Below, one piece after another: positions 4,466-4,775 of a stretch of 15,227 nt of DNA (the first letter of the stretch is position 1; each line of letters starts with the position of its first letter). The translations under genes and the position numbers were made by a program. Below the pieces are notes generated by a model. It was not told where the DNA came from. It worked only from the letters and a program-made list of their open reading frames with translations, and ran no database searches. Source of the stretch: a virus. Taxonomy: Duplodnaviria > Heunggongvirae > Uroviricota > Caudoviricetes. The stretch spans positions 1 to 15,227 of the IMG/VR virus record IMGVR_UViG_2740892422_000006; one strand, written 5' to 3'.

Positions 4466-4540
4466 TGGAGCGGGCAGCGGGAATCGAACCCGCATCATCA
4501 GCTTGGAAGGCTGAAGTAATAGCCATTATACGATGCCCGC
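4466..4540 (-). tRNA. tRNA-Gly (anticodon UCC)
   Basis: Minus strand GCGGGCATCGTATAATGGCTATTACTTCAGCCTTCCAAGCTGATGATGCGGGTTCGATTCCCGCTGCCCGCTCCA: cloverleaf with anticodon loop CTTCCAA; near-identical to E. coli glyT as recalled. Confidence 0.85.
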
Positions 4541-4543
4541 ATA

Positions 4544-4619
4544 TGGTGCCGACTACCGGAATCGAACTGGTGACCTACTGATTACAAGTCAGTTGCTCTA
4601 CCTACTGAGCTAAGTCGGC
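4544..4619 (-). tRNA. tRNA-Thr (anticodon UGU)
   Basis: Minus strand GCCGACTTAGCTCAGTAGGTAGAGCAACTGACTTGTAATCAGTAGGTCACCAGTTCGATTCCGGTAGTCGGCACCA; anticodon loop CTTGTAA; matches thrU-type tRNA as recalled. Confidence 0.85.
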
Positions 4620-4621
4620 AC

Positions 4622-4698
4622 TGGACCGCCACCGGGGACTCGAACCTCGCACACTCAACTTAAAGGGTTGACGCTCTTTCCTGATGAGCTAGTGGCGG
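4622..4698 (-). tRNA. Atypical tRNA; anticodon loop CCUUUAA (UUU/Lys in canonical register, but C at position 33 and an A-C mismatch in the T stem)
   Basis: Minus strand CCGCCAC-TA-GCTC-ATCAGGAAA-GAGC-G-TCAAC-CCTTTAA-GTTGA-GTGTG-CGAGG-TTCGAGT-CCCCG-GTGGCGG-T-CCA; full cloverleaf, spaced 1-2 nt from neighbouring tRNAs. Confidence 0.5.
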
Positions 4699-4699
4699 T

Positions 4700-4775
4700 T
4701 GGTGGCCCTTGCTGGATTTGAACCAGCGACCTGGCGATTATGAGTCGCTCGCTCTCACCACTGAGCTAAAGGGCC
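4700..4775 (-). tRNA. tRNA-Ile2 (anticodon CAU, lysidine-type; Met identity not excluded from sequence alone)
   Basis: Minus strand GGCCCTTTAGCTCAGTGGTGAGAGCGAGCGACTCATAATCGCCAGGTCGCTGGTTCAAATCCAGCAAGGGCCACCA resembles ileX/ileY-type tRNA as recalled. Confidence 0.7.

Follow-up and report, generated by a model that had tools for sequence, protein, structure and literature searches.

An argN-type tRNA with a lysine anticodon in the late-region tRNA cassette of Escherichia coli lambdoid prophages, and its possible insensitivity to tRNA-Lys nucleases

The IMG/VR virus record IMGVR_UViG_2740892422_000006 (positions 1 to 15,227; the whole stretch of 15,227 nucleotides that was analysed is called the window below) is an Escherichia coli lambdoid prophage whose late genes lie on the minus strand. 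The same strand carries a cassette of four tRNA genes, the second of which, an atypical tRNA-Lys(UUU), is the main subject of this work. ARAGORN placed the four genes, from upstream to downstream, at 4700-4775 (anticodon CAU), 4622-4698 (UUU), 4544-4619 (UGU) and 4466-4540 (UCC). The Rfam tRNA model (RF00005, gathering score 29) matched them with 72.5, 44.4, 73.8 and 66.0 bits, respectively, and because the E-values range from 8e-7 to 7e-15 these calls are far beyond chance. CCA is encoded at the end of every gene, and the spacers measure 1 nt (between the CAU tRNA and the atypical tRNA), 2 nt and 3 nt. This agrees with an initial annotation made from the sequence alone, which had described four tRNAs lying 1-3 nt apart. 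That annotation did not include three features described below: the location of the genes on the minus strand, the C1-G72 pair and U73 of the atypical tRNA, and a fifth tRNA-like paralogue at 3739-3820.

The identities of the other three tRNAs are straightforward. The CAU tRNA is 100% identical to ileZ of the Stx2c phage 2851, matches ileX of strain K-12 at 68 of 76 positions, and is annotated by PGAP as tRNA-Ile; the CAU anticodon of tRNA-Ile2 reads AUA after lysidine modification. The UGU tRNA is an exact copy of the host gene thrU (76/76 versus K-12), and the UCC tRNA is host glyT with a C26 to U change (74/75). Judged by these alignments, the Thr and Gly genes are captured host genes. The three tRNAs read the A-ending rare codons AUA, ACA and GGA, as had been proposed. 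We also considered whether the phage Thr and Gly tRNAs might themselves be nuclease-resistant variants; this was ruled out by their 100% and 98.7% identity to thrU and glyT, and for the Thr tRNA the invariance of its anticodon arm in 103 phage copies also counts against it, as does the weak or absent protection that host ThrU offers against Old.

As stated in the initial annotation, the cluster is located between a Q gene and the lysis genes. The gene encoding the late antiterminator Q lies upstream of the cassette at 4985-5680 on the minus strand (Pfam Phage_antiter_Q, 306 bits, E=1.8e-91), its homologue carries the PGAP label "bacteriophage antitermination protein Q", and the holin and endolysin genes lie downstream. 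A consensus scan detected a putative pR'-like late promoter (TTGCAA-17-TATATT; 4973-5001, minus strand) at the position of the annotated pR' of phage 21. It is followed by a short leader RNA (4890-4969, minus strand) in which a terminator scan found a tR'-like intrinsic terminator (stem 4898-4921 plus a T run). This leader, which has weak matches to the Rfam isrK and isrJ models (4896-4969; 23-29 bits, below gathering), is analogous to the late-leader transcripts IsrK of Gifsy-1 and 6S of λ. A second putative sigma-70-like promoter (TTGCAA-17-TATTAT; 4785-4813, minus strand) was found by the same type of consensus scan 10 nt upstream of the first tRNA; it is kept in TUM14697 and JP538 and has one change in M19.

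The initial annotation had interpreted the cassette as matched to the AT-rich cargo of the prophage. This cargo (8105-9599, plus strand; GC 0.35) lies opposite to the phage operons and to the cassette, and consists of a Ser/Thr kinase gene (Pfam Pkinase) and a PP2C phosphatase gene with a 17-nt overlap. Since the kinase matches the PADLOC defence models PD-T4-6, Stk2 and mad6, the two genes probably form an anti-phage kinase module encoded by the prophage, with the phosphatase as partner of the kinase, and the pair looks like a defence module that is expressed in the lysogen. We compared codon usage with that of a host set of 23 core genes, 8,026 codons in total. The abundance of ATA in the kinase that had been noted was confirmed (11 codons, 55% of its Ile codons), and the odds ratio (OR) for ATA is 14 in the kinase and PP2C genes, 5.9 in the other window genes and 2.8 in the structural genes of a related prophage (per 1,000 codons: host 2.0, window genes 11.6, cargo 27.8). 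The corresponding values for ACA are 5.0, 3.2 and 1.8 (host 4.9, window genes 15.5, cargo 23.8 per 1,000). For GGA, which is absent from the PP2C gene, the cargo shows no significant enrichment (OR 1.6, p=0.26), and the ORs are 2.5 and 2.1 in the other two sets (host 6.2, phage genes 15.2 per 1,000). AGA is the most enriched rare codon of the cargo (OR 18, versus 7.5 and 5.0), and the cassette has no tRNA-Arg(UCU) to serve it.

The expected enrichment in the cargo was thus found for AUA and ACA, both of which are overused phage-wide, and not for GGA or AAA (AAA share of Lys codons 0.79 in the cargo versus 0.76 in the host). Together with the unserved AGA codons and the presence of the cassette in prophages lacking the kinase/PP2C cargo, such as that of ETEC1731, these results led us to reject a cargo-specific codon match. 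Because the link to the cargo fails, codon supply is read as phage-wide. In this form it plausibly explains the Ile2, Thr and Gly tRNAs, whose codons are rare in the host and overused by the phage, but it leaves the atypical tRNA-Lys unexplained, AAA not being such a codon. The cassette itself is of a standard kind, found in the late region of lambdoid prophages of Escherichia/Shigella and already partly annotated, and both rare-codon supply and nuclease-evading viral tRNAs are known concepts.

The atypical tRNA (CCGCCAC-UA-GCUC-AUCAGGAAA-GAGC-G-UCAAC-CCUUUAA-GUUGA-GUGUG-CGAGG-UUCGAGU-CCCCG-GUGGCGG-U-CCA) has the structure initially attributed to it, namely a full cloverleaf with loop CCUUUAA, C33 and a T stem interrupted by an A·C mismatch. 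Its stems have 7, 4, 5 and 5 bp, its 7-nt anticodon loop consists of C32, C33, U34-U36, A37 and A38, the mismatched pair is A51·C63, and its score is above the family threshold. Rejection by tRNA predictors had been named as a possible outcome; ARAGORN (Lys(ttt)), Rfam (44 bits) and PGAP (tRNA-Lys) all accept it. Its acceptor stem begins with C1-G72, the discriminator is U73, and positions 16 and 39-41 are C16 and G39-U40-U41. The tertiary core of the window copy contains U8, A14, G18-G19 and the T-loop UUCGAGU, next to an unusual U15/G48 combination. Of the usual U33 and purine-37 it has only the latter (A37), and C33 is shared by the window copy and ~110 of the 126 family copies listed. The anticodon U34-U35-U36 is the one expected of a LysRS substrate, whereas position 73 is U instead of the A73 present in host and T5 tRNA-Lys. 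A73 is a LysRS identity element. A shift of the register that would create the anticodon UUA (an ochre suppressor) was rejected by inspection, as the shifted stem would not pair. In single-sequence minimum free energy folding the cloverleaf is the optimal structure of neither the atypical tRNA (z-score -1.5) nor argN (z-score -0.4).

The Stx phages carry ileZ-argN-argO in this slot, and the suggestion that the window cassette occupies the same place holds at the level of individual genes: its CAU tRNA is ileZ, and its atypical tRNA is a homologue of argN. The two share C1-G72, U73, A51·C63, the sequence of the D arm, T arm and 3' acceptor strand, and the position directly after ileZ. However, the Arg anticodon UCG is replaced by UUU, so that, on alignment grounds, the atypical tRNA is a scaffold homologue and not a functional orthologue of argN. 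A covariance model of the argN scaffold scored the atypical tRNA at 110 bits and argN at 91 bits, against 40-55 bits for unrelated tRNAs. From argN to the atypical tRNA, the anticodon stem shows a compensatory change of G30-C40 to A30-U40, and the loop changes from CUUCGAA to CCUUUAA. Its likeness to host tRNA-Lys is limited to generic tRNA positions.

We then analyzed how this gene is distributed. A scan of IMG/VR seeded with the T-arm/acceptor sequence detected at least 119 viral contigs. The order Ile2-Lys(C33)-Thr-Gly was present in more than 90 of the ~122 scaffold matches listed, among which Ile2-Lys(C33)-Arg(UCU) and the Stx-type Ile2-Arg-Arg were minor arrangements. ETEC1731 and E22 are examples of lysogens with the exact cassette. 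The stem-loop UCAAC-CCUUUAA-GUUGA occurs in ~110 of the 126 scaffold copies listed, and its rare variants differ only at position 32 (U or A). Among the matches listed, the same scaffold also bears the anticodons UCG and UCU, one 8-nt loop and, combined with a T stem that is paired throughout, the canonical Lys loop CUUUUAU. We found the atypical Lys element in 14.7% of the complete E. coli genomes (798 of 5,426); PGAP annotates the exact form as tRNA-Lys and leaves many copies at 96-97% identity unannotated. With one genome per species, the exact scaffold pattern matched in E. coli and Shigella flexneri only, and a deeper covariation analysis is therefore limited.

The copies also allowed an estimate of constraint. 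Across 17 distinct 77-nt variants of the atypical gene, 95% of the stem cells are paired. Stem changes on one side only are nearly always C to U facing a G, and 14 of the 17 variants have the A51·C63 mismatch. Downstream of tRNA-Gly, three diverged cassettes share only 60-74% identity with the window, while in these cassettes the identity of the Lys gene is 100%, 96% and 100%, equal to that of the Ile2, Thr and Gly genes. Non-consensus copies make up 43% for the Lys gene, close to the 35% for Thr and Gly. These data are suggestive of purifying selection on the atypical gene, but not strong evidence for it. In one diverged cassette, that of E. coli M19 (L132, 933-1008), the Thr(UGU) gene, which PGAP does not call, carries a G to A substitution in its D stem, and its anticodon stem has changed from GT to TC. 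These Thr changes break stems, whereas the three changes in the neighbouring C33 Lys copy preserve pairing or lie in loops.

A tRNA with a UUU anticodon that is not needed for codon supply may be explained by the nucleases that attack the tRNA-Lys of the cell. AriB of the PARIS system requires U36-A37-A38-U39-C40-A41, cutting between C40 and A41, and U16; its cleavage is abolished by U39 to A and impaired by A41 to C and by U16 to C (PMC12409363). The tRNA-Lys of phage T5, which is changed at AriB determinant positions, neutralises PARIS (PMC11464382), and PARIS, carried by P4 satellites, protects against λ, which has no tRNAs (PMC9122126). PrrC cuts tRNA-Lys 3' of U33 (PMC2610378), and infection of cells with PrrC170 is rescued by a phage tRNA-Lys but poorly by the host tRNA-Lys (PMC11555353). 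Finally, t6A37 depends on a strict 36-UAA-38 determinant (PMC13276492). The atypical tRNA has the anticodon of the AriB and PrrC target together with substitutions at the mapped recognition and cleavage positions: it has C16, G39, U40 and U41 where AriB requires U16, U39, C40 and A41, and so differs at every one of these mapped determinants; it has C33 at the scissile position of PrrC; and it keeps the 36-UAA-38 determinant for t6A. The best single explanation of these features, which we put forward tentatively and with less than even confidence, is that it is a replacement tRNA-Lys(UUU) that would be insensitive to tRNA-Lys nucleases. In the searchable literature we found no description of the argN scaffold relationship, of the fixed C33, or of a match to the AriB/PrrC determinants in a temperate phage.

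According to this explanation, minus-strand transcription of the cassette would start at pR' and depend on Q antitermination, a promoter of its own probably contributing as well. The Ile2, Thr and Gly tRNAs would add decoding capacity for AUA, ACA and GGA, which are overused phage-wide relative to host core genes. On an argN-type phage scaffold, the anticodon would have been switched from Arg (UCG or UCU) to UUU, giving a tRNA that may escape recognition by nucleases of the host or of rival elements, namely AriB of PARIS and possibly PrrC/RloC, so that late phage translation could continue after the tRNA-Lys of the cell has been cleaved. We infer all four properties that this requires: expression, charging with lysine (in spite of U73), decoding with C33 and the T-stem mismatch, and resistance to cleavage. 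By analogy, an anti-defence role of the tRNA slot between Q and the lysis genes of lambdoid phages is experimentally supported in one relative, because the Thr tRNA of phage 21 protects against P2 Old, host ThrU giving little or no protection (PMC12445682).

Several observations weigh against the explanation as a replacement tRNA-Lys. The U33 of the U-turn, which is near-universal, is C33 here, and A51·C63 is mismatched in that region of the T stem to which EF-Tu binds; together with U73, these features could make the atypical tRNA a poor elongator. Resistance to AriB cannot be established from sequence alone, as AriB also uses distal contacts that have not been mapped. Nor is the whole cassette obviously directed against nucleases, because its Thr(UGU) tRNA is identical to host ThrU, which protects little or not at all against Old. 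Covariation is modest, with changes on both sides in three stem pairs among the 17 variants. In the diverged cassettes the leader and promoter are also 93-96% identical, and, the copies being closely related, conservation may reflect recent spread of the module instead of selection. Lastly, common haplotypes are damaged, having a 1-nt deletion in the D stem (EHEC PPompW), a U8 to C change that comes with C4U and C11U, or loss of G18-G19 (ETEC4090). These haplotypes, which account for about half of the carriers in the sampled rows, are not called by PGAP (nor, for the ETEC4090 type, by ARAGORN), and they look like a sign of relaxed constraint.

According to the main rival explanation, the atypical tRNA is a decaying relic of an argN/argO-type Arg tRNA that acquired C35 to U and then U33 to C, and that hitchhikes, non-functional or barely functional, in a conserved module of promoter and tRNAs kept for ileZ, Thr and Gly. 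C33, A51·C63 and U73 fit such decay, as do the damaged haplotypes that PGAP does not call, one copy with a large internal deletion and another with an 8-nt loop; the fifth tRNA-like element shows that the scaffold can degenerate; and the low divergence of the module, including its non-coding leader, weakens the case for selection. However, argN also has A51·C63, C1-G72 and U73, so these are ancestral and not new damage. Further points against a relic are the compensatory double substitution in the anticodon stem, the preservation of UCAAC-NCUUUAA-GUUGA in ~110 of the 126 copies listed with only position 32 varying, stem changes that nearly all keep pairing, and a variability no higher than that of the adjacent genuine tRNAs. 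In M19 it is the Thr gene that took stem-breaking changes, and not its Lys neighbour. We regard decay as possible but less likely than replacement. If the atypical tRNA is a relic, it would be an ordinary, widespread annotation oddity, and the cassette would still not be tailored to the kinase/phosphatase cargo.

The explanation as a replacement tRNA-Lys can be extended to the scaffold as a whole. In Escherichia/Shigella lambdoid phages the argN-type scaffold may serve as a dedicated "immune-evasive chassis" on which the anticodons UCG, UCU and UUU are swapped to replace whichever host tRNAs are destroyed by the local anticodon nucleases, the C33 tRNA-Lys being a functional elongator in spite of its missing U33. 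This wider proposal is doubtful. If true, it would make temperate phages insensitive to abortive infection of the PARIS and PrrC type, and possibly lysogens as well, if the cassette's own promoter is active.

A simpler role would be that of an ordinary tRNA-Lys raising the dosage for AAA/AAG decoding in Lys-rich, AT-rich phage and moron genes. In line with this, AAA is more frequent in the kinase and PP2C genes than in the host (59.5 versus 33.3 per 1,000 codons; OR 1.8, p=0.004), all 13 Lys codons of a His_Phos moron in the late region are AAA, and the other three tRNAs fit a supply role. Yet AAA is already the preferred Lys codon of the host (share 0.76). With shares of 0.79 in the cargo and 0.69 in the remaining window genes, synonymous usage is not biased towards it, and the OR for AAA in other phage genes is only 1.13. 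Moreover, the host is rich in tRNA-Lys(UUU) genes (at least 5 in K-12, five of them within 2 kb), and a phage that needed more of this tRNA would be expected to carry a host-type copy, as it does for Thr and Gly, rather than a divergent C33 scaffold. This makes a dosage role improbable.

Alternatively, the atypical tRNA may not decode at all, and act as a mimic that binds a tRNA-Lys nuclease or modification enzyme as decoy or competitive ligand through its UUU-A37-A38 loop. C33, A51·C63 and U73 speak against efficient use by the ribosome, EF-Tu or LysRS; the anticodon loop and T arm are the best conserved parts, with the D arm and U8 damaged in common haplotypes; and the authors of the AriB work raise non-productive complexes as a possible viral strategy. 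Against this, binding by AriB is unlikely since the required U39, C40, A41 and U16 are all absent; in the single case tested (phage Thr tRNA against Old), rescue was by replacement and not by competitive inhibition; and the apparent pattern of conservation is biased by a census seeded with the T arm. A decoy role is, in our view, likewise improbable.

Finally, it is highly implausible that the atypical tRNA is a specialised tRNA-Lys tuning the programmed -1 frameshift of the tail-assembly chaperone (G/GT) at an A-rich slippery site: in the ETEC1731 prophage, which has the same cassette, the G/T junction GTT AAA AAA AGT is read only by tRNA-Lys(UUU), but the idea has one observation behind it, siphoviruses that lack tRNAs commonly have Lys-codon slippery sites, a tRNA in the minority would face competition from the abundant tRNA-Lys of the host, and the window has no tail genes. 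The slippery run of ETEC1731 lies at ~2528-2545 on the minus strand of locus L135, where the PGAP annotation gives T as a coding sequence of its own and calls G truncated; the slippery site of lambda, G GGA AAG, uses Gly(UCC) and Lys(UUU).

Downstream of the cassette, the minus strand contains ~1.1 kb of non-coding DNA (4465-3369) that holds three intrinsic terminators and a fifth, unannotated tRNA-like element (3739-3820, minus strand), a paralogue of the atypical tRNA. The scaffold model scores this element at 70 bits (E=3e-19), above argO (63 bits), T5 tRNA-Lys (55 bits) and host tRNA-Lys (50 bits). ARAGORN gave an unconvincing "Val(aac)" call, the Rfam tRNA model gave no match at E<=1, and there is no PGAP annotation. 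Nothing is missing from its acceptor, D and T arms: the T stem pairs throughout, CCA is encoded, and the changes G10-C25 to A10-U25 and C4-G69 to U4-A69 are compensatory. The anticodon region, however, is 5 nt longer than normal and not conserved; its best alternative fold has the stem AUAAC/GUUGU with the loop ACGUAUU, which is ACAUAUU in other copies. Because the anticodon loop varies between copies, the element is, from its sequence, unlikely to be a decoding tRNA. The element is flanked by two strong terminators, one just upstream (3881-3904, minus strand; 8-bp stem with 6 G-C pairs and a T7 run) and one after it (3693-3712, minus strand), before the TerB/DUF3927/holin lysis module. It travels with this lysis module and not with the tRNA cassette, as strain M8 has the element without the cassette and TUM14697 has the cassette without the element. 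A comparison of divergence between flanks and element showed the whole region to be >96% identical in every relative found.

The third terminator (4084-4101, minus strand) is a strong one that closes a candidate prophage small RNA (4267-4073, minus strand) with weak matches to the Rfam models STnc100 (27 bits) and GcvB (18 bits), both below gathering. The lysis module itself extends from 3368 downwards on the minus strand, and comprises TerB (2943-3368), DUF3927, holins and a GH108 endolysin. Within the late region, a 193-amino-acid open reading frame on the opposite strand (975-1556, plus) with a His_Phos_1 domain forms an island of GC 0.40 and looks like a moron; besides the 13 of 13 AAA Lys codons mentioned above, 6 of its codons are AGA. 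A hok/sok type I toxin-antitoxin locus (7540-7864, minus strand; Rfam sok 7690-7864, 112 bits; PGAP homologue hokD) and the small RNA DicF (14693-14744, plus strand; Rfam 76.7 bits) are typical of Qin-like lambdoid prophages, and the presence of sok and DicF confirms the prophage setting. The whole window is absent from any complete E. coli genome, the best coverage being 78%, and the prophage is therefore a mosaic.

If the C33 tRNA-Lys works as a replacement that nucleases do not cut, viral tRNAs with an anti-defence role would occur not just in large lytic phages like T5 but also in the temperate lambdoid prophages that are very common in E. coli and Shigella, with enterohaemorrhagic (EHEC) and enterotoxigenic (ETEC) lineages among them. 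It would also be a natural elongator tRNA working without U33 and a case of anticodon switching from Arg to Lys on one phage scaffold, and it would predict which prophages spread through populations carrying PARIS or PrrC. Were it expressed in lysogens too, the prophage could blunt the abortive-infection systems of its own host.

The cassette and its atypical tRNA can be compared with four known systems. The host lysT-family tRNA-Lys(UUU) shares with the atypical tRNA the UUU anticodon, A37-A38, a 7-nt loop and the cloverleaf. In an alignment of five sequences, however, the two differ throughout both strands of the acceptor and anticodon stems, and lysT has G1-C72, A73, U16, U33 and U39-C40-A41 in place of C1-G72, U73, C16, C33 and G39-U40-U41.

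The tRNA-Lys(UUU) of T5 resembles the window tRNA in having the anticodon of the AriB target, C16, changes at positions 39-41 and the retained U36-A37-A38. It is built on a normal Lys scaffold with G1-C72, A73, U33 and a paired T stem, and belongs to a lytic phage with 23 tRNAs, whereas the window tRNA, from a temperate phage, combines C1-G72, U73, C33 and a mismatched T stem on a phage scaffold of the Arg type. Resistance to AriB is known for the T5 tRNA, and we infer it here.

The lambdoid phage 21 carries its tRNAs in the same slot, directly after pR'/tR' and before the lysis genes. Both its tRNA-Asn(GUU) and its tRNA-Thr(UGU) have non-host scaffolds and are changed at position 39 (C39 and G39), whereas the window has Ile2, Lys, Thr and Gly anticodons with a host-identical Thr tRNA. 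The two phage 21 tRNAs (OL657228; L136, 39591-39746) correspond to two of the three targets of AriB of PARIS.

A close relative is the ileZ-argN-argO cassette of Stx phages (933W-type, for example phage 2851), which is packed just as tightly and lies in the same slot, with Q/pR' on one side and the downstream late genes on the other. Its first gene is identical to that of the window, and its second, argN, has the same C1-G72, U73 and A51·C63 and a nearly identical D arm, T arm and 3' acceptor strand. The second genes differ in the anticodon arm, where the window has UUU, C33, the loop CCUUUAA and A30-U40, and argN has UCG, CUUCGAA and G30-C40. The third position is taken by copies of thrU and glyT in the window and by argO(UCU) in the Stx phages.

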